The notes under the pieces: model-generated
What the model saw: only the letters and a program-made list of their open reading frames with translations
What the model was told of the DNA's origin: nothing
Databases searched by the model: none
Position numbers and translations under genes: made by a program
Shown: piece by piece, positions 15,197-50,925 of the stretch
Numbering within the stretch: the stretch's first letter is position 1
How the letters are laid out: each line of letters opens with the position of its first letter
DNA from: Clostridia bacterium
GTDB taxonomy: Bacteria; Bacillota; Clostridia; JAQVDB01
Reading direction: 5' to 3'
Assembly: GCA_028698525.1 (NCBI GenBank)
Contig: JAQVDB010000002.1
Location: 1-57,621 of the forward strand
DNA length: 57,621 nucleotides

Positions 15197-15376
15197 AATG
15201 AGCACCTCCTTTAATCTCATATCTATGGTTATATTTAATTATATATTTTGTTTTTACCGGCTGTCTATAAATCAATATATCCTTTAAACTAATATTTTAT
15301 ATATAGAAATATCGCATATCAGTAACAACTACTTTCATAATAACATATTATACAATTAAATTAATTTTTATTTACC

Positions 15377-15664: not shown

Positions 15665-16453
15665 ATGGAATTGACCTATAAATCAATGGGTATAGAATTG
15701 TTTAAAGAAAATTATATAATAGCTCTCGCAGGCAACCCTAATACAGGAAAGAGCACTGTATTCAACTACTTAACAGGTCTTAGACAACACACCGGAAATT
15801 GGCCGGGTAAAACAGTAGTAAACGCCTATGGAAATTTCAATTATAAAAACCAATCTTTTTTGATGGTAGATCTTCCCGGTACCTATTCACTTTTGGCCAA
15901 TTCTGCAGAAGAGGAAGTAGCTAGAAACTTCCTATGCTTTGACAACCCTGACGCAACAGTAGTAGTCGCCGATGCAACCTGTTTAGAGAGAAACTTGAAT
16001 TTGGTACTTCAAATAACCGAAATAACAAAAAATGTAATCCTTTGCTTGAACCTTATGGATGAAGCACGTAGAAAAAAGATAGATATAGATATTGAAAAAC
16101 TTTCAACAAAATTAGGTGTTCCTGTAGTGCCCACCGCTGCAAGACAGGGGGAGGGAATGGAAAAGTTAGTGGATATAATATATAAAGTTGTAACAGGAAA
16201 AATTAAACCTAATCCAATAGAAATAAGGTATGAAACCCAAATAGAAAATCTGATAAGAAATCTTGAACCAAAGATAGAGGCTTTTTCAAATGGGGTTGTG
16301 AATAGTCGTTGGGTGGCCCTACGCATAATTGATGGGGATAAAAAAATTCTTGAATCTATTTATCAATACACAAGACCCAATAAATCAGACCACAGCGAGG
16401 AGGTAAAAATTGCAGATGAAAAATCAAAGGTTCATTCCATTAAATTTGGATGA
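15665..16453 (+). CDS. feoB: FeoB N-terminal part (G-domain plus helical domain) as a separate ORF
   Basis: GNPNTGKST P-loop, DLPGTYSL and NLMD motifs. The ORF stops after about 262 aa, where full-length FeoB continues into the membrane domain. Confidence 0.85.
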   Translation: MELTYKSMGIELFKENYIIALAGNPNTGKSTVFNYLTGLRQHTGNWPGKTVVNAYGNFNYKNQSFLMVDLPGTYSLLANSAEEEVARNFLCFDNPDATVVVADATCLERNLNLVLQITEITKNVILCLNLMDEARRKKIDIDIEKLSTKLGVPVVPTAARQGEGMEKLVDIIYKVVTGKIKPNPIEIRYETQIENLIRNLEPKIEAFSNGVVNSRWVALRIIDGDKKILESIYQYTRPNKSDHSEEVKIADEKSKVHSIKFG

Positions 16454-17795
16454 TTACGATATAAAGCCCTATTATAGAGATAGCATAGTCTCAAATATAT
16501 ATAAAAATGCAGAAAATATATGTAATGATGTGATAGAATACAATTCAAAAGACTATAATAATTTGGATAGAAAGCTGGATAGAATACTGACTTCCAGAAT
16601 TGCAGGCCTACCCATTATGCTGTTGTTGCTGGGAATTATCTTTTGGATAACAATAACCGGGGCTAACTATCCTTCTCAATTGCTGTCCGCTGCATTGTTT
16701 TGGGTAGAAGAAAGGCTTACCAATCTTTTCGTATCAATAAATGCTCCCATGTGGTTGCACGGAATGCTGGTTTTAGGTTGCTACAGAACCCTTGCTTGGG
16801 TTGTATCAGTTATGCTTCCTCCAATGGCAATATTCTTCCCTATCTTTACACTTCTCGAAGACTTAGGATACTTGCCCAGGGTGGCATTTAACCTAGATCG
16901 ATATTTTAACAAGGCATGTGCACATGGCAAACAGGCCCTTACCATGTGCATGGGTTTCGGATGCAACGCTGCAGGTGTTATATCCTGTAGAATAATTGAA
17001 TCCCCTAGGGAAAAACTTATAGCCATGATTACAAATAATTTAGTACCCTGTAACGGTCGTTTCCCAACACTTATAACCCTTTCTTCAATATTCATGGGAG
17101 GAAGTCTTGCTTTTGGCCTGAAAACAGGTATAGCTTCTATGGTGGTAGTGTCCATGGTATTATTGGGTATAGCGATCACATTGCTTTTATCATGGCTGCT
17201 TTCAAAAACTATATTAAAGGGTATACCATCTTCCTTTACATTAGAGCTTCCTCCATATAGAAAACCTCAAGTATTGAAGGTGATAGTAAGATCAATATTT
17301 GATAGAACATTGTTTGTGCTAGGAAGAGCTGTAGTGGTGGCTGCCCCTGCCGGTATAGTCATATGGCTGTTTTCTAATATTCATATAAATAATTCTAGCA
17401 TATTGAATATCTGCGCAAATTTCCTACATCCTTTCGCTCATCTTATAGGGATGGATGGATATATAATAATGGCTTTTATACTGGGACTTCCTGCAAATGA
17501 GATCGTAATACCCATATTGATTATGAGCTATATGTCTACAGGAGCTATGTTAGAACTAGATAGTCTATATGCACTAAAACAACTGCTGATGGATAACGGC
17601 TGGACCTGGCTTACTGCTTTAAATGTAATGCTTTTTTCTCTGCTACATTGGCCTTGTGCTACTACATTGTGGACTATAAAAAAGGAATCCGATAGCAACA
17701 AATGGACTATTACAACTTTTATTCTCACCACATTAATAGCTATAATTGTGTGTTTTATAGTCACCCAATTATCCAGGTTGTTTGGAATAGCATAA
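16410..17795 (+). CDS. feoB: FeoB C-terminal membrane (permease) part as a separate ORF
   Basis: Polytopic gate-motif region typical of FeoB. It is in a different frame from the G-domain ORF, overlaps it by 44 nt, and has its own GAGGAGG before the 16410/16416 starts. Confidence 0.85.
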   Translation: MQMKNQRFIPLNLDDYDIKPYYRDSIVSNIYKNAENICNDVIEYNSKDYNNLDRKLDRILTSRIAGLPIMLLLLGIIFWITITGANYPSQLLSAALFWVEERLTNLFVSINAPMWLHGMLVLGCYRTLAWVVSVMLPPMAIFFPIFTLLEDLGYLPRVAFNLDRYFNKACAHGKQALTMCMGFGCNAAGVISCRIIESPREKLIAMITNNLVPCNGRFPTLITLSSIFMGGSLAFGLKTGIASMVVVSMVLLGIAITLLLSWLLSKTILKGIPSSFTLELPPYRKPQVLKVIVRSIFDRTLFVLGRAVVVAAPAGIVIWLFSNIHINNSSILNICANFLHPFAHLIGMDGYIIMAFILGLPANEIVIPILIMSYMSTGAMLELDSLYALKQLLMDNGWTWLTALNVMLFSLLHWPCATTLWTIKKESDSNKWTITTFILTTLIAIIVCFIVTQLSRLFGIA

Positions 17796-17812: not shown

Positions 17813-18232
17813 TTACGGTGTTATTTTCTCTTGTATATAACAACTATATCTATCATAAGCCTCTTTGTCATGCTCCATAAATTCTATAAATTCCTGCATA
17901 GCTTTAATGGTATGTCTGCTAAGATAATGCTCCATTGCTTCTGCTTCTTGTTCTATATCACATCTGGAAAATATCGTCTGTAAAAACTTTTTTATCAGCA
18001 TATTGCGGTCTACCAGATACTTGCCTCTCTTTTTGCCCATTTCAGTTAATTTTAAAGGTCGATACGGTTTGTATGATACCATGTTGAGTTTTTTCAATTT
18101 CTTCAATGCTTTAACCACAGAAGGTTGGGATACATTTAAACATTCAGCAATATCACACACCCTTATCTCAGATTTCTCCACCTCCAGCCTATACATCTCT
18201 TCCAAGTAATCTTCAAGGCTAGGGGTTAACAT
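17813..18232 (-). CDS. DtxR/MntR-family metal-dependent transcriptional repressor
   Basis: Colinear with B. subtilis MntR (TPSLEDYLE...DIAE...PSV...MEHYLS). The likely start is ATG 18232, behind AGGAGG. Confidence 0.85.
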   Translation of the reverse strand: MLTPSLEDYLEEMYRLEVEKSEIRVCDIAECLNVSQPSVVKALKKLKKLNMVSYKPYRPLKLTEMGKKRGKYLVDRNMLIKKFLQTIFSRCDIEQEAEAMEHYLSRHTIKAMQEFIEFMEHDKEAYDRYSCYIQEKITP

Positions 18233-18262
18233 AAAAAACACCTCCTGATAACCTAACTAAAA

Positions 18263-18307
18263 AGACCTTTATTCCAACAACACGATGTATTATTGAAATA
18301 AAGGTCT
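18263..18307 (-). terminator. Rho-independent terminator-like hairpin about 20 nt upstream of the DtxR-family gene RBS
   Basis: 11-bp stem 18263-18273/18297-18307 followed on the minus strand by UUUU. Confidence 0.6.
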
Positions 18308-18479
18308 CATTCCAGGATGATACCTGCACTGAAGCGGGCTACAATAAGCCAGCATGTCGCAAACAGTGTCAAAAACTATTTTAATAAATAGCTTTTTTGA
18401 ATTACTCCCCTTTATTTAGCATTAGGTTTTAATATATCATATGAATGTACATGAATTATGTTACAGATTATATGCAAGA

Positions 18480-18940
18480 AGCCCGAATATTACATTCGGA
18501 CTCCTCTCTATAAATAAAACGAGCACGTAATGATCTACCTTGCACTACCATGGATCGCTTATTACTCAGCCATAACCTTCCGGCTATGACCGAGCAGGTC
18601 ACCACCCATGATAATGGGTTGTCCGACCATGCAAAGTACCTGCACAGCCATATACAACCTCACGGCTGTATATGACCAACAATATCGGATAAGCATTTAA
18701 TTATCCAATAATCTTCGGCACTTTACATGATCTTTGCTCGACTCTATACGATAGGTTGGAATCTTATTGCAATCAAGCCTCAAAAGGTCATCGACTACAA
18801 TAAAACTTTTCCCCACCGTATAGAATCTTCCCTCCGACTGCATACAAGCCTTTCAACCTGTATGCAATCTTTGGCCGACCTATATATACCCCATTTAGAG
18901 TATATATAAGTCTGGGCTCAACCATTACGTACCCGACATT
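18480..18940 (-). ncRNA. Large structured RNA of unassigned class, copy 1 (paralog of 25036-25490)
   Basis: About 97% identical to copy 2 outside one swapped domain. It has the same closing helix (18520-18532/18923-18935) and a CATAAT -10 at 18942-18947. It lacks a credible ORF. Differences from copy 2 are structure-neutral on the minus strand. Confidence 0.7.
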
Positions 18941-19115
18941 TATTATGATATCCATTTTTGCATTTTATATTCTAACAATTTCATCCGTATTACCCATTAT
19001 ATTTTTACTTTACAGATAAAAATGGAATTATATAAATACATCTGATTAACAAATGCTAAACATAGCATGCATTTGAAAGAAATAACAGTGATGTCATCTT
19101 TATCCTATATTGGCA

Positions 19116-20873
19116 CTATTCAACAACTTTATAATCGGCTTGATCTAATATGTTTCTGCTGCTATAGTCAAACAATATGACTACCTTCTTATCCCTGATA
19201 TCTTCTATATTACATCCCTGGATATATGCCGCAACATAATTTTCAAACTGCTCAAAATGGACATGCCTTATTATATGTTTTGCAGATTTTCCAATAAAAT
19301 GTGGCAAAAATTTCTCCACATTTTCCCTTGATTTTAAAAATTCGAAACACCTATTTTTTATATCCACATGATTGCTATATGCTTTGATGAATTCAGGCAG
19401 TTTGCCGGTTTTATTTTGTCTCAGATAGTCAAACTTCAATATGTCACAGAACAGGGCAGCGTCCCGATGTATCCTTGTTATATAAAATTCAAGCAATATT
19501 TTATATAACATCTTTCTACTATGAGAAACCTTGGCATAACCCTTAGCAAAATAAAATTCCGAAAATTCCTCATAAAACTTAAAAGGAGAATCAAAGTAGT
19601 TGTCAATTATATATTTTACTGAACAATCAAAGGCATGACTGTTCCAATATTTTTCAACTAAATCCTCAATCATTTTAAGCTTTGCTATTTCTCTATATGA
19701 CATATAAACATTGCTCATCACTTCATATGGAGGAAAATCAGTATAAACATAGCTATGCTCCCGAGCCATCCTCCTCATATCAGTTCCTTTAAGCAGCTTT
19801 AAAAAGCCTAATTGGAGCCTGTCCGGCTTCAGCATGTATATATCATTAAAGGATTGTGAAAATGAATGATATGTTTCATAGGGCAATCCGGCTATCAAAT
19901 CCAGGTGCTGGTGTATATTTCTCATATCGTATACCTTTTTCACATTATCACTTAAAAGTTTAAAGTCCATCCTCCTGTTTATGCTCTCTAGCGTCTTTGG
20001 GTTGGTGCTCTGTACCCCTATTTCAAATTGAAAAAGGCCTGGGGGTGCTTTACTTATAACCTTTATCATCCTGTCATCTATCAAATCACCGTTGATTTCA
20101 AAATGAAAAGAGGTTTTATCGCTATTTTCTATCAAGAATGAAAATACTTGAAGAGCATAATCCATATTACAATTAAATGTCCTGTCTACAAATTTAACTT
20201 TGTCTACACCTGCTCGTATAAATGTCATCAAATCTTTCTTTACCCTGTCCAGACTAAAAAACCTCACTCCTTTTGAAGCTGAAGAAAGGCAATATGCACA
20301 TTTATACGGACATCCCCTTGAGCATTCATAATATATGAGTTTTGAATGATCTATCAATTTATCTATATCCTGATATGGAAAAGGTATGTCATCCAAATTC
20401 TGTATAGGCTCTCTATCCTGAGCCTCCAACACCCTATCTTTATCCCGAAAGCATATACCAGCTACATCAGAAACACTCTGATCTTTACTGATACAAGTTA
20501 TTAATTCCCGAAAGCTCTCTTCCCCCTCACCTTTTACAATAAAATCAATAAAATCATGCTCCCTTAACAGATCAGCACAATCATATGATACCTCCGGCCC
20601 TCCTAATATTATCTTTATAGAATCATCTACCATCTTGAGGTGTCTGCAAATCACCAACGTTTGCTGAATGTTCCATATATAACAAGAAAAACAAACAACT
20701 TCTACATCTTTAAAATATATATCTCCTATTATGTAATCCAATGTATCATTTATTGTATACTCCTGCAAAATAAAATTCACATTCTCAATACCAGCACAAT
20801 AATTGTTGAGATACCTTATAGCTAAGTTTGAATGTATATATTTAGAGTTTAAAGTGGTCAATAACACCTTCAT
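19116..20873 (-). CDS. B12-binding domain radical SAM protein (DUF4080-type C-terminus)
   Basis: N-terminal B12-binding-like domain, CSRGCPYKCAYC radical SAM cluster motif, long helical C-terminal extension; 585 aa. Confidence 0.85.
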   Translation of the reverse strand: MKVLLTTLNSKYIHSNLAIRYLNNYCAGIENVNFILQEYTINDTLDYIIGDIYFKDVEVVCFSCYIWNIQQTLVICRHLKMVDDSIKIILGGPEVSYDCADLLREHDFIDFIVKGEGEESFRELITCISKDQSVSDVAGICFRDKDRVLEAQDREPIQNLDDIPFPYQDIDKLIDHSKLIYYECSRGCPYKCAYCLSSASKGVRFFSLDRVKKDLMTFIRAGVDKVKFVDRTFNCNMDYALQVFSFLIENSDKTSFHFEINGDLIDDRMIKVISKAPPGLFQFEIGVQSTNPKTLESINRRMDFKLLSDNVKKVYDMRNIHQHLDLIAGLPYETYHSFSQSFNDIYMLKPDRLQLGFLKLLKGTDMRRMAREHSYVYTDFPPYEVMSNVYMSYREIAKLKMIEDLVEKYWNSHAFDCSVKYIIDNYFDSPFKFYEEFSEFYFAKGYAKVSHSRKMLYKILLEFYITRIHRDAALFCDILKFDYLRQNKTGKLPEFIKAYSNHVDIKNRCFEFLKSRENVEKFLPHFIGKSAKHIIRHVHFEQFENYVAAYIQGCNIEDIRDKKVVILFDYSSRNILDQADYKVVE

Positions 20874-20978
20874 AATTTATCTTCTCCTATTTTATTAATG
20901 CCTTTAAAAATACCCAAAGTTATTGTTATATCATACACTAATTATATATCAATATACTGTATGGGAGGAGTATAAAGA

Positions 20979-21548
20979 ATGATAAAATATATCGTTCAGT
21001 CCGGCGATAACTTGCAAAATATTGCATTAAAGTTCAATATATCCATGCAAGATATAGTTAGGCTAAATAAGATAAAAGACCCTGACATGATATGCCCAGG
21101 GGAAAAATTACTTATACCTGTATATTCAATACCATACTATCCATACCCTGTTCAGATAAAGCCCTGCCCTTATTGGTTGATTCCAGATTCTCTATTTATA
21201 TGTATATCAACAGATAAGACTTTCTACAGAATGGGAGAAAGGCTGAAGACAACACTTTTAAAAACAAATATGGGTAGACAAGATATAGCACTTACTTATA
21301 ATACCAGTCAGCAGTACGATTTTTTGATAAAACATATATCAGGTAAAACTTTGTGGAAATGGTCAGAAGATAAATGCTTCACACAGTCAATAGGAAAAAT
21401 AATCATAGAACCGGATAAGACTATACGATATTGTGAGGTTTTCAGCATTCCGAAAAGTATAGAGAAAGGAATATATACTGTAATAGGTTGGAACACTTCC
21501 CGAGAATCAAAAAAATTTAAACTCTGCTTACCTATAGTAATCATATAA
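20979..21548 (+). CDS. LysM domain protein with a BsuPI-like (intracellular proteinase inhibitor) C-terminal domain
   Basis: N-terminal LysM (YIVQSGDNLQNIALKFNIS...). The C-terminal YDFLIKH..GKTLWKWSEDKCFTQ segment resembles BsuPI. Confidence 0.65.
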   Translation: MIKYIVQSGDNLQNIALKFNISMQDIVRLNKIKDPDMICPGEKLLIPVYSIPYYPYPVQIKPCPYWLIPDSLFICISTDKTFYRMGERLKTTLLKTNMGRQDIALTYNTSQQYDFLIKHISGKTLWKWSEDKCFTQSIGKIIIEPDKTIRYCEVFSIPKSIEKGIYTVIGWNTSRESKKFKLCLPIVII

Positions 21549-21569
21549 ATACTGGCTATATGCCAGTAT

Positions 21570-22067
21570 TTATATGTCATTTATACCTTTATTGCCTCTC
21601 TGTAAAGCTATAGTTCCTGTTCTTACAGTTTCAATAATTCCATAACGAGCCAACAACTTCTCCATAGCTTTTACCTTATCCTTATCCCCGGTTATTTCGA
21701 TAACCAGAGCATTGGTATCTACATCTACTATTTTGGCTCTAAAAATATCAACAATTTGCATTACTTCCGATCTAGTTTCTTTTGTTGTAGCCACCTTCAT
21801 CAATACAAGTTCCCTGCATACAGATTTATGGGGTTCTAATTCAATCACCTTTATTACATCTACTAATTTGCTTATTTGCTTTTTTATCTGATCCACTTCT
21901 CTTTCATCACCATTGGCAACAATAGTCAATCGTGAAATCTTTGGATTCTCCGTCTCTTCACCTGTAAAGCTATCTATATTAAATCCCCGCCTTGTAAATA
22001 AGCCAGATACTCTGGTTACCACGCCATATTGATTATGTACCAATACTGATATTATATGCTTTGCCAT
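21570..22067 (-). CDS. ilvN: Acetolactate synthase small (regulatory, ACT) subunit
   Basis: HIISVLVHNQYGVVTRVSGLFTRRGFNIDS signature; 165 aa. Confidence 0.85.
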   Translation of the reverse strand: MAKHIISVLVHNQYGVVTRVSGLFTRRGFNIDSFTGEETENPKISRLTIVANGDEREVDQIKKQISKLVDVIKVIELEPHKSVCRELVLMKVATTKETRSEVMQIVDIFRAKIVDVDTNALVIEITGDKDKVKAMEKLLARYGIIETVRTGTIALQRGNKGINDI

Positions 22068-22103
22068 TTTATTGCTCCCTTCCTAGTTGGTATTGAAATT
22101 CAT

Positions 22104-22823
22104 TTAAAACCAAGGCTTGTTATTCGCCCTTCTTACATGGATATCATCGATAACCGCATTGCTGTGCCTATGATTCAATAAGAAAAGAACAATATCCGCA
22201 ATCTCGTCAGGGCTAATCAATCCGGATACATCCAAATCAGGTCTCATCTTGATAACCATATCTGTTGCAACTCCCCCAGGACATATTGTATGAACCCTTA
22301 TTCCCAGGTCCTGAACCTCCTGTGCTAAAACGTTGCTCATACCCATCAATGCATGTTTTGAAGCTGTATAGGCAGCTTGATTTACATACCCCTTGACCCC
22401 TACAACAGAAGAAATATTTATAATTGTAGCGTCTTTTGAGCATTGTAAATAGGGAACAGCCTGTTTGCACAGCAAAAACGGTGCTCTTGCATTTAATTCC
22501 ATATGCATATCCCATTCTTGGACAGTTGTCTCACACAGGGGTTTAGGTATAGCAATGCCCGCATTATTAATAAGATAATCCAATCTCCCAAAATCCTCTA
22601 TACATCTTGCAATTATCTGGGAAGGAATATCAGCATCTGCAAGATCTGCAGCTTTTATTACAGCTCTTATGCCTTGCTGCTCTACGTGAGATTTTACTGT
22701 TTCAAGGTCTTGGGCCGAACGGCTGACAAGCATTAGGTTGACCCCTTTTTCAGCCAATCTCATGGCTAAAACCCTTCCTATCCCCCGGCTGGCTCCAGTT
22801 ACTAAAGCAACATTTCCTTTCAT
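22104..22823 (-). CDS. SDR-family oxidoreductase
   Basis: TGASRGIG cofactor motif and YTASKHA catalytic motif. The likely start is ATG 22823, behind GGAGGGGG. Confidence 0.85.
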   Translation of the reverse strand: MKGNVALVTGASRGIGRVLAMRLAEKGVNLMLVSRSAQDLETVKSHVEQQGIRAVIKAADLADADIPSQIIARCIEDFGRLDYLINNAGIAIPKPLCETTVQEWDMHMELNARAPFLLCKQAVPYLQCSKDATIINISSVVGVKGYVNQAAYTASKHALMGMSNVLAQEVQDLGIRVHTICPGGVATDMVIKMRPDLDVSGLISPDEIADIVLFLLNHRHSNAVIDDIHVRRANNKPWF

Positions 22824-22963
22824 ACTATCCCCCTCCAAATCTATCCTTTTACTATAAACTTAATTTGATTTTCTATTTAATCTTTTATTTGTAAAACTAA
22901 TAGTATTATACCATAGGTCTCTAGTAAACTATAAGATAGCAATTCCATCCCAGCTTTGCCCAA

Positions 22964-23007
22964 AATAAAAAAATCCGGATACTCTTTTCAAAGTGTGCCG
23001 GATTTTT
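22964..23007 (-). terminator. Hairpin plus U-run after the ThyX-like gene
   Basis: Stem aaatccgg/ccggattt (22971-22978/22998-23005), followed on the minus strand by UUUUAUUUU. Confidence 0.5.
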
Positions 23008-23015
23008 AAAGCATG

Positions 23016-23588
23016 TTAAACTAATACCATATCCTTCATACAGGGAAGACCTTCAATCCAATCACAAACTTTCTTCCATTCTTTCAGTTTATGATTTCTC
23101 CTCTGATAATACATTGTCTTAAGCTGTAAATAATTAGTCACAATACCTGCTGTAAGTTGTAGACCCATAGGAGTGTTAGAAACTATCTGCTGAAATAATT
23201 CATCAGAAGGATTTTCTTTATATTCTTCCACTAACTTCTGGAGCAATTGTATCGCTTCCGGCAGCACATATTCATTACACTGATTACTTATATCCATATG
23301 TACTATCCTATGCATTTTAGACTGGCTAGAAACTATATCAGCAAAATGATATCTCTGAAACTGCAACCACCAATATTGTGGAGCAGTAAAATCTGCCTGT
23401 ACTATAATACCCTTGAGAAAACAATCATGCCCGCTGCCTACCTTGGCACAGCCTAACTTTTTTGCCCTTTTAAGGTCTTTGTCACTATATCCTTGTTTTC
23501 TTAAACCTTCATCCCCTATACTCATAGGATATCCACTCACTATTATACTCTTCTCAAGGCCATATACCCTCGTATCCTTAATCTCCAT
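23016..23588 (-). CDS. ThyX-fold protein lacking the canonical ThyX RHR/SxRY motif (function unknown)
   Basis: By-eye alignment to ThyX. SGHDCFLKGIIVQADFTAPQYWWLQFQRYHFADIVSSQSKMH matches [34 protein letters not shown]. C-terminal N..L....RRNHKLKEW matches NARSL..L..R....AQWEI. Confidence 0.5.
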   Translation of the reverse strand: MEIKDTRVYGLEKSIIVSGYPMSIGDEGLRKQGYSDKDLKRAKKLGCAKVGSGHDCFLKGIIVQADFTAPQYWWLQFQRYHFADIVSSQSKMHRIVHMDISNQCNEYVLPEAIQLLQKLVEEYKENPSDELFQQIVSNTPMGLQLTAGIVTNYLQLKTMYYQRRNHKLKEWKKVCDWIEGLPCMKDMVLV

Positions 23589-23657
23589 TCAAACCACTTC
23601 CCCTAACTATTAACTATTATAACTAGATAAATATGTAAAATGATAATAAATCTATAA

Positions 23658-24944
23658 TTAAATATTTTCCACCTTTAATATGCACGCAACCTTTTGTACA
23701 ATATCATTTTCTAGTATCTCATTTAGCGCTTTATCTAATATACTTCGCTCTACTCCATATGTTATAAATATAAGCGGTACTAGATCTTCACCTTTAGCCC
23801 TTTGGGACACCGATTCCAAGCTTATTCCGTATTTTCCAAAGGTAGATGCTATCTTGCCCAGCTGTCCAGGCTTGTCCTCCACCATCACTCGTAAATAATA
23901 CTTGCTCTTGCCTTCCCCTATTGTGTTCAATCCGTTTTTATCAACTAAGTTTAAATTCCCAGATCTATAGCTAGTTCCCATCCTTTTAGATATGTCCAAA
24001 ATATCTCCCATAACGGCACTGCCTGTCGGCATAGAACCGGCACCCTTCCCAAGAAGCATCAGATCTCCTACTGCATTTCCATGTATGAAGAGAGCGTTAT
24101 ATTCATCATTTACAGAGGCCAGCGGATGTTTTTCAGGAACCAAGGCCGGATGTACATAATAAATAAAGTCATCTCCTTTTCTTCGTGCAGTAGCCAGAAG
24201 CTTGACTTTATATCCTATCTGACCAGCATACTCAATATCCTTCTGGGTGACTTTTGTTATTCCCTCTCTAGGTATTTCATCCGGAGAAAGTGTAAGTCCA
24301 AATACTATATATATCAATATAGAAAGCTTAAAAGCCGCGTCTTCACCTTCAATATCCGAAGTAGGATCAGCCTCTGCATAACCTTTTTGCTGTGCAAGCT
24401 TTAAGGCCTCATCAAAATCCATGCCATTATCGCCCATCTGAGTTAATATATAATTGGTAGTACCATTTATAATCCCCATTATACTATCTATCTTGTTTGC
24501 AGAAAGACTCCTAGTGATGTTATTTATTACGGGTATTCCCCCGGCTACGCTTGCCTCATACCTCAAATTTACACCCTGCTGCTTTGCTAATTGTCTCAGT
24601 TCCTCCCCTTTAGTAGCGATAACAGCCTTGTTGGCAGTCACCACATTCTTGCCTTTCAATAGGGCACTTTTTATATATTGATATGCCCCATCTATTCCAC
24701 CCACAAGCTCTACCACTATATCTATTTCCTCGTCGTTTATTATATCCTCAAATTTTTGGGTAAACACCTGGCCTGGTACATCCACACCTCTGTCCTTGTT
24801 TATATCCCTGACTAATATTTTTTTGATATGTATAGGCTTGTCTATATATCTTTCTATCTTATCTCTGTTCATCTGGATTATATTCCAGACTCCTTTTCCT
24901 ACATTGCCAAACCCGAGCAATGCTATATTTATACCATCCATCAA
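23658..24944 (-). CDS. hom: Homoserine dehydrogenase (with C-terminal ACT domain)
   Basis: LLGFGNVGKGV NAD-binding N-terminus, catalytic domain and ACT tail; 428 aa. Confidence 0.93.
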   Translation of the reverse strand: MMDGINIALLGFGNVGKGVWNIIQMNRDKIERYIDKPIHIKKILVRDINKDRGVDVPGQVFTQKFEDIINDEEIDIVVELVGGIDGAYQYIKSALLKGKNVVTANKAVIATKGEELRQLAKQQGVNLRYEASVAGGIPVINNITRSLSANKIDSIMGIINGTTNYILTQMGDNGMDFDEALKLAQQKGYAEADPTSDIEGEDAAFKLSILIYIVFGLTLSPDEIPREGITKVTQKDIEYAGQIGYKVKLLATARRKGDDFIYYVHPALVPEKHPLASVNDEYNALFIHGNAVGDLMLLGKGAGSMPTGSAVMGDILDISKRMGTSYRSGNLNLVDKNGLNTIGEGKSKYYLRVMVEDKPGQLGKIASTFGKYGISLESVSQRAKGEDLVPLIFITYGVERSILDKALNEILENDIVQKVACILKVENI

Positions 24945-25035
24945 ATTACTTTCGCTCCTTTTTTATATCAATTCTATTCATATATTATATACTAAAGACG
25001 GATAGTATTAAAGAAAAATGAGGTAAAATATCATA

Positions 25036-25490
25036 CAACAAAAGACCCAGAAAACTTCTGGGTCTTTATAAATAAAACGAGCACGTAATGATCTATCTTG
25101 CACTACCATGGATCGCTTATTACCCAGCCATAACCTTCCGGCTATGACCGAGCAGGTCACCACCCATGATAATGGGCTGTCCGACCATGCAAAGTACCTG
25201 CACAACCATATGCAACCAATGCGTTAAGCTGAGGCTGCATATGATCGAACATTACCAGACAAAATCTTCGGCACTTTGCATGATCTTTGCTCGACTCTAT
25301 ACGATAGGTTGGAATCTTATTGCAATCAAGCCTCAAAAGGTCATCGACTACAATAAAACTTTTCCCCACCGTATAGAATCTTCCCTCCGACTGCATACAA
25401 GCCTTTCAACCTGTATGCAATCTTTGGCCGACCTATATATACCCTATTTAGAGTATATACAAGTCTGGGCTCAACCATTACGTACCCGAC
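25036..25490 (-). ncRNA. Large structured RNA of unassigned class, copy 2 (adjacent to tRNA-Ala)
   Basis: TATAAT -10 at 25495-25500. Closing helix 25078-25090/25476-25488. At least 8 helices, including GAAA- and GGAA-capped hairpins. Strong intrinsic terminator (stem 25043-25050/25058-25065 plus U-run). Many G-U pairs exist only on the minus strand. Confidence 0.75.
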
Positions 25491-25594
25491 ATTTATTATA
25501 GTACCCTTTTTTATTGCATCTATTCCGGAATTTTTAAAGAATTATTATCAGATGATCTATACACATTATTGATGAGTTTTTAAAGATAGCAAAC

Positions 25595-25637: not shown

Positions 25638-25713
25638 TGGTGGAGATGATGGGACTCGAACCCACGACTCCCTGAATGCCATTCAGGTACTCTCCCAACT
25701 GAGCTACATCCCC
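25638..25713 (-). tRNA. tRNA-Ala (anticodon GGC), CCA encoded
   Basis: The reverse complement reads GGGGATGTAGCTCAGTTGGGAGAGTACCTGAATGGCATTCAGGGAGTCGTGGGTTCGAGTCCCATCATCTCCACCA. It has a G3:U70 identity pair, anticodon loop AUGGCAU and a GTTCGAGTC T-loop. Confidence 0.95.
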
Positions 25714-26950: not shown

Positions 26951-27733
26951 TTAAGAGTTAACAACTTGCTTATAGTATCCCTGGAGCTTCTTTATTATCC
27001 TTCTCTCCATCCTAGATACATACATTTGAGAAACCCCCAGCTCACTAGCAACCTTGTTTTGCGTTTTTTCCTCAAAAAACCTGGCATTTATAATCTTTTT
27101 CTCCAGCGGATTTAACCTTGAAAGACAATCATCTAAGAAATATTTATTTTCTATGTCCACCAATCCTTTTTCCTCTCTCCCAATCAATTCAAGCAAGCTT
27201 AAATCATTATCATCGCCTAAATTATCGTAAGTAGCTTCAATAGACTGAGGTGCATAGACTTGTCCAGATTCCATAGCTTCCAATATCTCTTCTTCATCTA
27301 CACCTAAATATTCAGCTATATCACTGACCTTAGGAGTTCTTTTTAATTTTTGTGTTAATTTTTCCTTTGACTTATTTATTTTATAATTTAACTCCTGTAT
27401 CCGCCTGGGTACTCTTATAACCCAACCTTTATCGCGAAAATATCTCTTTACTTCTCCAATAACAGTCGGGGTAGCAAAACTGGAAAATTCATATCCTCTG
27501 TCGACGTCATATCTTTCTACCGCCTTTATAACCGCTAAACTTGCCACCTGATATATATCATCATACTCTATTCCTCTATTAGCATACTTTTTAGCAATTA
27601 TTTCAGCAATATAAAGGTATCTGTGAACCAATTCATCCCTAATCTCTTTGTCTTTTGTAGCTTTGTACTCAGCAAATAATGCTTTATCCCCTTCATAAGC
27701 GGAGGAATTTTCTAAACCGTTTTTTTCAGGCAT
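26951..27733 (-). CDS. sigB: Alternative sigma factor, SigB type
   Basis: Sigma-70 regions 2-4 (RVPRRIQELNYKI, SQMYVSRMERR). It follows RsbV/RsbW homologs and resembles B. subtilis SigB more than SigF. Confidence 0.8.
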   Translation of the reverse strand: MPEKNGLENSSAYEGDKALFAEYKATKDKEIRDELVHRYLYIAEIIAKKYANRGIEYDDIYQVASLAVIKAVERYDVDRGYEFSSFATPTVIGEVKRYFRDKGWVIRVPRRIQELNYKINKSKEKLTQKLKRTPKVSDIAEYLGVDEEEILEAMESGQVYAPQSIEATYDNLGDDNDLSLLELIGREEKGLVDIENKYFLDDCLSRLNPLEKKIINARFFEEKTQNKVASELGVSQMYVSRMERRIIKKLQGYYKQVVNS

Positions 27734-27735
27734 AC

Positions 27736-28191
27736 CTACTCCTCCTCCGTAACAGATTTTCTCATTGTAAGCACAGTACCTCTGCCCTCATTAGACTTTA
27801 ACTCCACTTCATCCATGAGAGATTTTATTATAAATACTCCAAGCCCCCCTTCTTTAGGGTTGGATAGATCAGGCTTTTTTAATTTATCGACCTGCATTCC
27901 TTTCCCTTTATCCTTAACAGTTATTTCTATATTCCCCGGTTCAACTTTGAAATCAATAACAAAACTGTTTTCACATTCTGTACAGCCATGAAGTATTGCA
28001 TTAGTACAAGCCTCTGCTATTGCTACCTTAATATCTTCTATGTCTTCTATATTAAATCCAACCCTATTAGCGATAGCGGACGCAGTCAACCTTGCAACAC
28101 TCACATATTCAGGTTTGTTAGGAAGTATAAGTTGGATTTTATCATATATGCAATCTTCGCTGGATGCGGCAATTTGGGAAAAACTATTCAT
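27736..28191 (-). CDS. rsbW: Anti-sigma-B factor / serine kinase RsbW
   Basis: PNKPEYVSVARLTASAIANRVGF...IAEACTNAILHG closely parallels RsbW. The likely start is ATG 28191, behind GAGGAG. Confidence 0.85.
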   Translation of the reverse strand: MNSFSQIAASSEDCIYDKIQLILPNKPEYVSVARLTASAIANRVGFNIEDIEDIKVAIAEACTNAILHGCTECENSFVIDFKVEPGNIEITVKDKGKGMQVDKLKKPDLSNPKEGGLGVFIIKSLMDEVELKSNEGRGTVLTMRKSVTEEE

Positions 28192-28198
28192 AATAAAT

Positions 28199-28516
28199 TC
28201 ACTCCTCGACAATAAAAATCTTGTTTAAACCCGTTATCTCTAGCAGCCTTTTCACATTATCTCTAGGGCCTTTTAATACTATATTTCCATTATACTCTTT
28301 AACCCTTCTCAAAACCCCTATAAATACTCCCAAGCCTGTGCTATCAATATATACAAGATCATGCATATCCACTACCAAATCTGTCTTTTCTTTTTCTATC
28401 GGATCCAAAAGTTTCTCTTTTAACTTTGGCGCCGTATAAACATCTACTTCACCTTCGACCTTTACATACCAATTACCTTGTGCTTCATTTTTGGTACACT
28501 CCACATTAAAAGCCAT
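28199..28516 (-). CDS. rsbV: Anti-anti-sigma factor RsbV (STAS domain)
   Basis: STAS fold with the phosphorylatable-Ser motif YIDSTGLGV. The likely start is ATG 28516, behind GGAGG. Confidence 0.85.
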   Translation of the reverse strand: MAFNVECTKNEAQGNWYVKVEGEVDVYTAPKLKEKLLDPIEKEKTDLVVDMHDLVYIDSTGLGVFIGVLRRVKEYNGNIVLKGPRDNVKRLLEITGLNKIFIVEE

Positions 28517-28546
28517 AACCATAACCTCCAATACCGGATATATTAT

Positions 28547-28919: not shown

Positions 28920-30368
28920 TCAATATGCTTTTGCAAAATACATCATCTTTTCAGCCTTTTCCCCACAACATACACATGTATCGCTTATATGTTCCTGATC
29001 AAAAGGCATACATCTACTGGTAGCACCAGTCTGATCTTTTATGCTATCTTCACATTCCCTGCTCCCGCACCACATAGCCTTTGCAAAGCCCTTTTTATTG
29101 TCTACTATATCCTTCAATTGTTGGATGTTTTCAGCGTTAAATGTACGGTCCTCCATGAATTTCTTTGCCTTGTTATACATTCCATCATGGACCTGTTCTA
29201 GTAGTTGATCTATTGTTTGGGATACATTGTCCATTGATACAAACAACTTTTCACCTGTATCCCTTCTCACCAATACAACCTGATTTTTCTTTATATCTCT
29301 TGGGCCTATCTCCAGCCTTACCGGAACGCCTTTTAATTCCCACTCATTGAATTTCCAGCCGGGGGTATAGGTATCCCTATCATCCAGCTCTACTCTTATA
29401 CCTGACTTTTTCAATATAGTAAATAGCTCATTCGCTTTATCCAACACTCCTTCCTTATGCATGGCTACAGGTACTATTACCACTTGAACTGGTGCAACTC
29501 TTGGAGGCAACACCAGCCCTCTTTCATCCCCATGAACCATTATTATACCACCTATCAGTCTGGTGGATACACCCCATGAGGTTTGATATACGTACTTGAG
29601 CTGTCCATCCTTATCAAGGTATTGTATATCAAAAACTTTTGCAAAATGCTGTCCTAAATTGTGAGAAGTACCTGCTTGCAATGCCTTACCATCGCTCATC
29701 ATGGCTTCCATGGTATATGTGGTAAGAGCACCGGCGAATTTTTCCTTTTCTGTCTTTTGCCCTTTTATAACAGGCATAGCTAAGTCATTTTCTGCAAAAT
29801 CGGTATAAACATTCAACATGCGCAAAGTCTCTTGTTGAGCCTCCTGTTCAGTTGCATGTGCAGTATGCCCTTCCTGCCATAAAAATTCTGATGTTCTTAA
29901 AAAAGGTCTCGTACTCTTTTCCCATCTCACTACATTACACCATTGGTTCAAAAGTACAGGCAAATCCCTATACGACTTTATCCATTTTGAATACATACTA
30001 CATATGATAGTTTCAGAAGTAGGTCTTACCACCAACCTCTCGTTGAGTTTTTCATTTCCTCCGTGAGTTACCCATGCAACCTCAGGTGCAAAACCCTCTA
30101 CATGATCCTGCTCTTTTTTTAATAAACTTTCGGGTATAAACAATGGAAAATATGCATTCTTATGTCCTGTTTCCTTAAACCTCTCATCCAATAGTTTCTG
30201 TATATTTTCCCATATAGCATATCCATACGGTTTTATTACCATACAGCCCTTTACTGGGGAATAATCCACCAGTTCAGCCTTTAATATAACATCAGTGTAC
30301 CATTGTGAAAAATCCTCTTCCCTTGAGGTAATATGTTCAACAAACTCCTGTTGCTCTTTTTTTGCCAT
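28920..30368 (-). CDS. proS: Proline--tRNA ligase (archaeal/eukaryote-like type, no INS editing domain)
   Basis: 482 aa with class II aaRS motifs and a C-terminal Zn-binding region (CVCCGEKA). Confidence 0.95.
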
Positions 30369-30394: not shown

Positions 30395-30645
30395 ATATAA
30401 AAAACCTTCGCCCCCCAAAAGGACGAAGGTCATTCTCCGTGGTACCACCCTAATTGGAAAACATAAAAATATTTTCCCACTTTAAAAATATAACGGTAAT
30501 GCTCCGTATATCCCTACTAAAAATTCAGGATATATACTCGGGGACGGGTTGGAAAAAAGGCGGTTCAGGAACCTTTCAGCCACGGGTTCCACTCTCTTGG
30601 AACACTTCTTTCTACTGTTTCCCTTCATAGATACATGCTTTTTTA
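30395..30645 (-). promoter_or_regulatory. T-box leader controlling proS (tentative CCU proline specifier)
   Basis: On the minus strand: an AGAGAG box; the T-box sequence AATTAGGGTGGTACCACGG (about 30438-30456); and terminator ACCTTCG...CGAAGGTTTTTT (about 30400-30430), competing with the antiterminator. The GGTTCCTGAACC loop offers a CCU codon. Confidence 0.85.
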
Positions 30646-50661: not shown

Positions 50662-50885
50662 TAAAAAAGTTCTCAAATGCACGCAAAAAGCATTTGAGAA
50701 CTTTACCATCATCCTCATAAAACTCACAAAACAGGCAGGTCTCCTGGCTCTGATTCATAGGTACTGCTCAACCTTCCCGGCAACGGCCAGTGGTTTTGAT
50801 AACTTAAGCAGCAGCTCATCATTACAGTGGCGGGTCCGCTCGGGATTTTCACCCGGTTCCCTATTCTCCCTGTGTATGGGCACCT
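50662..50885 (-). promoter_or_regulatory. Cobalamin riboswitch with terminator expression platform, upstream of cobT
   Basis: On the minus strand: AGGGAACCGGGTGAAAATCCCGAGCGGACCCGCCACTGTAA; GCCACTGG..GGGAAGG; B12 box AGCCAGGAGACCTGCC. The terminator stem is 50668-50680/50690-50702 plus a U-run. Confidence 0.9.
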
Positions 50886-50925
50886 ATTTTGATATATGTA
50901 CTTTTCATTTAATTATATCACATGT

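Follow-up and report, generated by a model that had tools for sequence, protein, structure and literature searches.

What do two near-identical elements on one strand of a bacterial contig encode, and at which level is their sequence selected? The elements lie at 18510–18947 (copy 1) and 25068–25500 (copy 2) of a 57,621-nucleotide (nt) stretch from a Clostridia bacterium (GenBank assembly GCA_028698525.1, contig JAQVDB010000002.1, positions 1 to 57,621 of the forward strand), which is called the window below. Our analysis supports the conclusion that both elements are a structured non-coding RNA of the minus strand, selected for base pairing and not for coding or for DNA sequence. We consider it likely that they are paralogous genes of a widespread RNA family of about 390–420 nt in endospore-forming Firmicutes, each a stand-alone gene with a SigF/SigG-type promoter, whose product acts in trans and is associated with the spore. 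All coordinates of the RNA and its signals refer to the minus strand.

Conserved pairing in a family of homologues

Homologues of the two elements were collected in successive scans. The first scan used a 24-nt exact pattern against one genome per species and returned four relatives with 71–78% identity, and the later scans were anchored on junction motifs of the RNA. Homologue profiles were built with nhmmer in place of a covariance model, and such a profile, run over the fetched loci, detected a long homologue at no fewer than 154 loci. The two window copies scored 418–427 bits against the family profile (427 bits for copy 1). The scans also hit Proteobacteria, Acidobacteria and comparable groups; these hits had no profile match and were discarded as due to chance.

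The predicted helices were strongly conserved in these homologues. In an alignment of 21 distinct sequences with 154 predicted pairs, 98.0% of the cells held standard pairs, and 72 of the pairs showed double changes. When the pairing partners were slid along the alignment, 35–41% of the cells were paired, and none of 500 column shuffles reached any of the observed measures. The 69 wider members, scored at 150 pairs, were paired in 96.7% of the cells (36–41% in the slid controls) and showed double changes at 98 pairs. No conserved open reading frame (ORF) was found in the family; the longest ORFs had 30–100 codons with starts scattered over the alignment columns, which ruled out a protein-coding gene. 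An initial annotation of the window, made from the two copies alone, had proposed that selection acts on the pairing of the minus-strand RNA, and it had named relatives with randomly disrupted helices as evidence to the contrary. Our results agree with this proposal, and the substitutions in the relatives preserved the helices.

The two strands also differed in predicted stability. The minimum free energy (MFE) of the minus strand was -229.5 kcal/mol for copy 1 (z -16.8 versus shuffles) and -229.4 kcal/mol for copy 2 (z -17.9), compared with -129.5 kcal/mol (z -7.6) for the plus strand of copy 2. This gap of 100 kcal/mol arises because G-U pairs, of which each 13–17-bp helix contains 3–5, turn into C-A mismatches on the opposite strand. 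G-U accounted for 21.8% of all pair cells, and 11 pairs were G-U in every sequence.

Among the matches listed, the hosts are almost all Firmicutes of endospore-forming lineages. Within the Clostridia and their relatives they include Caldicoprobacter, many species of Desulfosporosinus, Dehalobacter, Desulforamulus, Peptococcaceae, Caloramator, Thermobrachium, Thermohalobacter and Tepidibacter. Further hosts in this group are Clostridium species, Natronincola, Wukongibacter, Marinisporobacter, Mahella, Thermoanaerobacterium, Symbiobacteriaceae and Limnochordales. The Negativicutes are represented by Pelosinus, Propionispora, Lucifera and Sporomusaceae, and the Bacilli by a few members (Tepidibacillus, Vulcanibacillus and Bacillus sp. 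EB600). Only one host among the matches listed has a label outside the Firmicutes, a genome named Calditrichales bacterium MX18-03 (locus L191); this genome could be mislabelled or contaminated, or it could have received the RNA by horizontal transfer. BLAST searches of phages and plasmids and two scans of viral contigs returned no copies.

Architecture of the RNA and divergence of the copies

The transcript of copy 1 is predicted to extend from G18937 to a U-run at about 18510–18519 (18510–18937, about 425 nt), and that of copy 2 from G25490 to a U-run at about 25068–25077 (25068–25490). Both are organised around a six-helix junction (P1–P6), which is closed by P1 (16–17 bp). In copy 1, the 16-nt 5' strand of P1 (18920–18935) pairs with 18520–18535; this is helix 1 of the covariation analysis, in which 99.1% of the cells were paired and 8 pairs showed double changes. 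P2 (18877–18912; helix 2) and P3 (18836–18869; helix 3) are single hairpins of 15–16 bp found by both folding and covariation. The remaining helices are long two-segment arms with conserved internal loops. P4 (18740–18827; helices 5 and 6) contains the loop GGGGAAAAG / UUCCAACC. P5 (18625–18732; helices 7 and 9) carries P5a (18683–18710) and P5b (18646–18677), and P6 (18543–18616; helices 11 and 12) consists of P6a, a 4x4 internal loop and P6b. GNRA tetraloops cap P5b, with the conserved loop GUGA at 18660–18663, and P6b, with GGAA. A 7-bp extension of P1 in the MFE fold (AUAAAUG/UAUUUAU) was dropped, as it lies upstream of the predicted start and is not conserved. A search of the unpaired alignment columns detected no covarying loop–loop, kissing-loop or pseudoknot pairing.

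The bases of the helices follow a common pattern. Except in P6, the junction-proximal segments have the form 5' GAU/GAC ... GUC 3', which gives a G-C pair, an A-U pair and a conserved U-G wobble, and the closing strand of P1 ends in GGUU. The linkers between helices are purine-rich and conserved (GAGCCCA, GGCCAAA, GGAGGGAA, GAGCNAA, GAACGA and CAAGGUA). Both window copies contain the junction motifs of the family (GUUGAGC, CCRAAG, GGNGGGNAGAU, GUCGAGCNAAGA, GUCGAAC and AAGGUAGA), and all helices form in both. Arm lengths vary little: of 68 members, 59 have a P6 module of 79 nt. The length of the P5 module lies between 68 and 118 nt, since its hairpin P5a varies in length and is missing from some members. 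Four Negativicutes members (L060, L103, L065 and L148) have a different sequence in P4 and no GGGGAAAAG / UUCCAACC internal loop, and may form a structural subtype of the family.

Pairwise alignment of the minus strands agreed with the initial annotation that the two elements are copies in the same orientation, with an offset of 6558 nt at the low-coordinate end (18566 corresponds to 25124) and 6553 nt at the high end (18907 corresponds to 25460). Column-by-column mapping also recovered exactly the six point differences it had listed outside one internal arm, at 25460, 25445, 25278, 25177, 25124 and 25096 in copy 2 numbering. Three of the six are wobble-compatible changes within helices: 25460 in P2 (A-U in copy 1, G-U in copy 2), 25278 in P5 (U-G in copy 1, C-G in copy 2) and 25124 in P6b (A-U in copy 1, G-U in copy 2, with G in 19 of 19 relatives). 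The annotation had counted 25177 as a fourth helix position, but this nucleotide belongs to junction J5/6 and is unpaired in the family consensus. Position 25445, described as part of a hairpin loop, was mapped to the loop of P2 or its closing position. For 25096, which had been left unassigned, we found a place in junction J6/1, where copy 2 has A and all 19 other aligned relatives have G.

These six differences are weak statistics, because about half of random helix transitions are neutral on a given strand. Stronger evidence came from the P5b stem, where the copies differ by two fully compensatory double changes, from G-C to A-U at 18676/18647 and from A-U to G-C at 18669/18654, and by one further wobble change. 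The decisive evidence for selection on pairing is nevertheless the covariation across the family, not the six differences between the copies.

The divergent block, which the initial annotation had described as a swapped domain (25203–25267 in copy 2), corresponds exactly to P5a and the tip of P5b, the variable periphery of the family. In copy 2, P5a is short and the stem of P5b is retained through compensatory changes. The GNRA loop of P5b, with a G and an A that never vary among the other 20 aligned sequences, has been exchanged in copy 2 for a 15-nt loop (25218–25232); no site complementary to this unique loop, as expected of a guide or antisense element, was found within the window. The lost GNRA loop and the change at 25096 mean that copy 2 has not diverged in a purely structure-neutral way, as had been claimed for the differences between the copies. 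As copy 2 departs from the consensus at these two sites, it may be a diverged or decaying paralogue, with copy 1 as the canonical copy.

Genomes of the family carry one to three copies of the RNA. Locus L138 contains three head-to-tail copies (434–1859), each with its own promoter, and tandem arrays of two were found at L163, L171 and L182. The copies of Caloramator sp. mosi_1 (L115; 255–686 and 5404–5838) are 5 kb apart and differ mainly in P5a, other sets of copies are near-identical over their whole length (L138, Thermohalobacter), and those of Desulfosporosinus have diverged everywhere. The copy pairs of the window and of Caloramator L115 flank a biosynthetic operon of 5–6.5 kb, consisting of hom and its neighbours in the former and of nadABC-pdxST in the latter. 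In an independent Logan assembly (SRR22315504), a 6238-bp contig corresponds to window positions 18917–25154, starting in one copy and ending in the other, which is typical assembler behaviour at repeats.

Transcription signals and proposed role

A scan with the SigA consensus found no promoter directly upstream of either copy and no acceptable -35 element. When the upstream regions of the family were aligned on P1, the motif G[ACT]AT[AGT]-N17/18-[CT]ANN[ACT]TA appeared, ending 3–7 nt before P1. Of 94 members, 71 carried it, and in an enlarged set the count was 97 of 139; shuffled sequences yielded 0.9 on average and 6 at most. GTATA, GAATA or GCATA at -35 and CATAATA at -10 were the commonest forms, and the Negativicutes form was GTATG-N17-CATACTA. 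Both window copies match this pattern in register with P1. Copy 1 has GAATA at 18968–18972 and, 17 nt further on, TATCATA at 18944–18950; in copy 2 (25497–25525), GAATA (25521–25525) and TACTATA (25497–25503) are separated by a 17-nt spacer. From this register, the start sites G18937 and G25490 were predicted, 2 nt before P1. The -10 box CATAAT reported by the initial annotation is present at 18942–18947, but it is 3 nt off register and overlaps the -10 element assigned here (GAATA-N17-TATCATA, 18972–18944).

The motif resembles promoters of the developing spore. The forespore SigG/SigF consensus of Bacillus subtilis is GHATR and CATXHTA separated by 17–18 nt. The same promoter type (GAATA-N17-TATTCTA) precedes the gerA operon that adjoins the RNA in Caldicoprobacter oshimai, and gerA is SigG-dependent in B. 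subtilis. Mapped SigF/SigG promoters of C. difficile are alike, e.g. GAATA-N14-GG-A-CATAATT of spoIIR (Table S6, PMC3789822). We infer that SigF or SigG would direct transcription of the RNA in the forespore.

In both window copies, the 3' strand of P1 is directly followed by a U-run (GUGCUCGUUUUAUUUAU; 18509–18519 in copy 1), an arrangement that resembles a terminator. At least six U within the eight nucleotides just after P1 were found in 40 of 81 members. P1 probably doubles as the stem of a terminator. Copy 2 has an added canonical intrinsic terminator directly 3' of the RNA (25041–25067). Downstream of copy 1 we found an extra hairpin at 18480–18500, which the initial annotation had placed at 18483–18499 and rightly called weaker; it has no proper U-run and is not common to copy 2 or the relatives. 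The strong minus-strand terminator that the annotation placed at 18263–18307 is also there. The suggested read-through of copy 1 to this site is possible yet not required, given the U-run after P1.

About 20 nt separate the end of the terminator-like hairpin at 18263–18307 from an mntR-like gene (17813–18241) with its ribosome-binding site and start. This gene may be controlled by an attenuator or leader in 18310–18480; Rfam gave no match in this interval.

The genes beside the RNA are unrelated across the family, and some of the downstream genes are convergent. The neighbours are hom, mntR and a B12-radical-SAM gene in the window, and spoIIP, a cupin gene, DUF1015 and gerA in the Caldicoprobacter group. 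Elsewhere they are a nitroreductase with a sulfatase, DegV, EamA, RmuC, a pullulanase or nadABC-pdxST. We therefore regard the RNA as the product of a stand-alone gene that most likely acts in trans.

Taken as a whole, we favour the following sequence of events. Transcription would begin about 2 nt before P1 from a SigF/SigG-type promoter (GNATA-N17/18-CATAATA-like) and would stop at the U-run after the 3' strand of P1, which would serve both as closing stem and as terminator. The resulting compact and very stable RNA may then act in trans in the developing spore, although with low certainty. Most probably, but again with low certainty, it would be abundant and would serve as scaffold or partner of a protein or assembly that dormancy or germination requires. 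Hints of such a role, or of one exerted through the RNA's own structure, come from the unvarying geometry of the arms, from G-U pairs that are invariant at the bases of helices, from GNRA loops together with internal loops that resemble receptors, and from the multi-copy organisation similar to that of ssp genes.

Several points weigh against a spore-associated RNA of this kind. About 30% of the members are without the strict promoter motif, and a strong U-run after P1 is limited to the 40 of 81 members mentioned above. The invariance of the junction motifs is partly ascertainment, as the scans demanded those motifs. The start site, the use of the terminator and the forespore timing are all deduced from sequence, and nothing that we found indicates a specific molecular function or partner. 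A keyword search of the literature, which is no proof of absence, returned no published description of the RNA. The -10 region of the window and Caldicoprobacter promoters also resembles the GGGTA box of SigB-type promoters, and copy 2 has a SigB-like operon 1.5 kb upstream. These last two points raise the question of whether a SigB-like general-stress sigma factor reads the promoter, in which case the product would be a stress or stationary-phase RNA and not a sporulation RNA. The operon in question contains RsbV/RsbW-like genes (26951–28531) with a SigB-like promoter at about 28880, and GGGTA or GGTTA stands just upstream of the -10 element in the promoters concerned. However, SigB promoters carry GTTT or GWTT at -35, and the third base of the -35 element here (GNATA) is A. 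In most members, CATAATA or CATACTA follows at a spacing of 17–18 nt and GGGTA is missing, and the hosts among the matches listed belong almost entirely to spore-forming lineages. Control by SigB is thus unlikely in our judgement.

Other explanations concern what the RNA does. Its large size, constant arm lengths and conserved junction bases, the 11 invariant G-U pairs, the two conserved GNRA loops and the missing conserved protein neighbour would suit a ribozyme or a self-assembled multi-copy RNA complex of the ROOL/GOLLD kind without a protein partner. This idea differs from ours in mechanism only, and we regard it as rather doubtful, as no known catalytic core motif and no covarying loop–loop or pseudoknot pairing was detected. 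The same 3–4-bp motif with its flanks (A|GAU...GUC|G) recurs at the base of five helices, which could mark sites where a precursor is cut into several hairpin RNAs. However, P1 covaries and closes the entire molecule, the arms are not built alike, no hairpin body repeats another, and no associated nuclease gene was found among the neighbours; processing of this kind seems quite improbable. The copy number of two to three in some genomes, the tandem arrays (L138, L163, L171 and L182), the copy pairs around 5–6.5-kb operons (in the window and in Caloramator L115) and the assembly break at the copies recall a selfish repeat, similar to miniature inverted-repeat transposable elements or short interspersed elements, whose fold would serve its own spread. 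Against this, genomes contain just one to three copies, neither a transposase nor target duplications or terminal repeats at the DNA level were seen, and viral, phage and plasmid collections yielded no copies. Every copy comes with a sigma-factor promoter of its own, in register. The pairing needs G-U (four in P1), which places it at the RNA level and on one strand, and P1 is not an inverted repeat of the DNA. A selfish repeat is therefore very unlikely. Finally, both window copies lie upstream of genes on the same strand, and P1 with its U-run is terminator-like, as in a riboswitch or attenuator that would control hom (copy 2) or mntR (copy 1) in cis. Yet the downstream genes are unrelated across the family and in part convergent, a further full terminator separates copy 2 from hom, about 420 nt is far above known leader sizes, and the RNA gene occurs in tandem arrays. 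We give a cis-acting leader hardly any credence.

Extending the reading of a trans-acting, spore-associated RNA, we can picture a new class of large ornate RNA that is produced specifically in the forespore and stored in the dormant spore. It would work there through its own three-dimensional structure, either as a ribozyme or as an RNA or RNA–protein particle that assembles itself, and Clostridia, Negativicutes and some Bacilli would need it for spore dormancy, resistance or germination. This is a tentative proposal, which we regard as possible and not as probable.

Other features of the window and relation to known RNAs

A protein of about 206 amino acids is encoded divergently beside the RNA in the Caldicoprobacter group (L003 3552–4262, L007 4456–5076, L004 6406–7047 and others). 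It has no Pfam match, and we take it to be Rad52-like by eye from the motif GSETGDDF...AYGRALAALGYG. It was rejected as a partner of the RNA, as it has no homologue in the window and distant members have unrelated neighbours. Homologues of DUF1015, SpoIIP and GerA were likewise not found in the window.

Several further features of the window were noted. The promoter of copy 2 is preceded, at a distance of about 110 nt, by a tRNA-Ala(GGC) gene (25638–25713, minus strand). The sigma operon at 26951–28531 (minus strand, operon region to 28900) comprises RsbV-like and RsbW-like genes and a sigma gene of the SigB/F/G family, and its promoter at about 28880 has the SigB-type sequence TGATT-N14-GGGGTAT. 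The sigma factor scored higher as SigB than as SigF, with both scores below the equivalog cut-offs, and the small gene preceding the operon genes is presumably YtxH-like. A T-box leader (30416–30637, minus strand, 126.8 bits) is located upstream of a proline-tRNA ligase gene (28920–30368, minus strand), and a cobalamin riboswitch (113 bits) was found at 50717–50902 (minus strand). On the plus strand, FeoB is encoded by two overlapping ORFs (15665–17795), the N-terminal GTPase at 15665–16453 and the membrane part at 16410–17795; the gene is either frameshifted or naturally split. Upstream of the feo genes, at 15314–15342, there is a SigF/G-like motif (GCATA-N17-CATAATA).

The window RNA was compared with the 4227 models of Rfam 15, which include OLE, ROOL, GOLLD, raiA, HEARO, 6S, RNase P, tmRNA, SRP, group I and II introns and ylbH/CsfG. 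Neither window copy matched a model at the gathering threshold or with E values up to 10, and 10 homologous loci as well as L065 gave no match either. The best-scoring model was LOOT, with 19.4 bits where the threshold is 46.4 (E 0.2); it was rejected because the score is far too low and the relative L065 lacks the hit. We regard the window RNA as a new RNA class, for which orphan large structured non-coding RNAs as a kind provide precedents.

Large structured bacterial RNAs that are kept across many genera are rare, and RNase P, tmRNA, 6S, OLE, ROOL, GOLLD and raiA each opened a line of research. The present family has about 150 covarying base pairs and occurs in well over 100 representative species, and its forespore-type promoter makes the predicted timing testable. 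The RNA side of sporulation is poorly known, and CsfG is the only conserved forespore small RNA that we found described. If the family is tied to sporulation, a multi-copy RNA of about 420 nt would be a new component of a bacterial developmental programme that is among the best studied. Cultured hosts exist, including Caldicoprobacter oshimai DSM 21659, Desulfosporosinus species, Thermobrachium celere and Caloramator.

Known systems share single traits with the window RNA. The ssp (small acid-soluble spore protein) genes of B. subtilis are scattered multi-copy single-gene units, each with its own SigG-type promoter and terminator; the likeness is one of genomic style only, as ssp genes encode proteins and the window RNA contains no ORF. 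The raiA motif RNA (ModT) is also a structured and abundant non-coding RNA of Firmicutes, and published titles report knock-outs that affect sporulation. It is about 200 nt long and has another fold, and the window RNA did not match its Rfam model. CsfG (formerly the ylbH leader) is an RNA of 136 nt with CU-rich loops, which is located between ylbG and ylbH and binds Hfq (PMC3574147). It depends on SigF/SigG and is restricted to endospore-forming Firmicutes, so the window RNA shares its host range and, by inference, its control; the two have no similarity in sequence, size or fold. ROOL and GOLLD are, like the window RNA, large ornate RNAs with regular long arms and unclear function, and they sometimes adjoin tRNA genes, as copy 2 follows tRNA-Ala. 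They are longer (about 580 and 800 nt) and often lie on prophages, whereas the present family had no Rfam match and was not found in viral contigs. OLE RNA (Rfam RF01071) provides a further likeness, as it is a large, ornate, conserved and stand-alone RNA of anaerobic or extremophilic Gram-positive bacteria with unclear function. It is about 600 nt long, is tied to the oapA/B/C genes, is not multi-copy and matches the window RNA in neither sequence nor structure. In contrast to OLE, the window RNA is built on a six-helix junction, lacks a conserved neighbour and is preceded by a forespore-type promoter.

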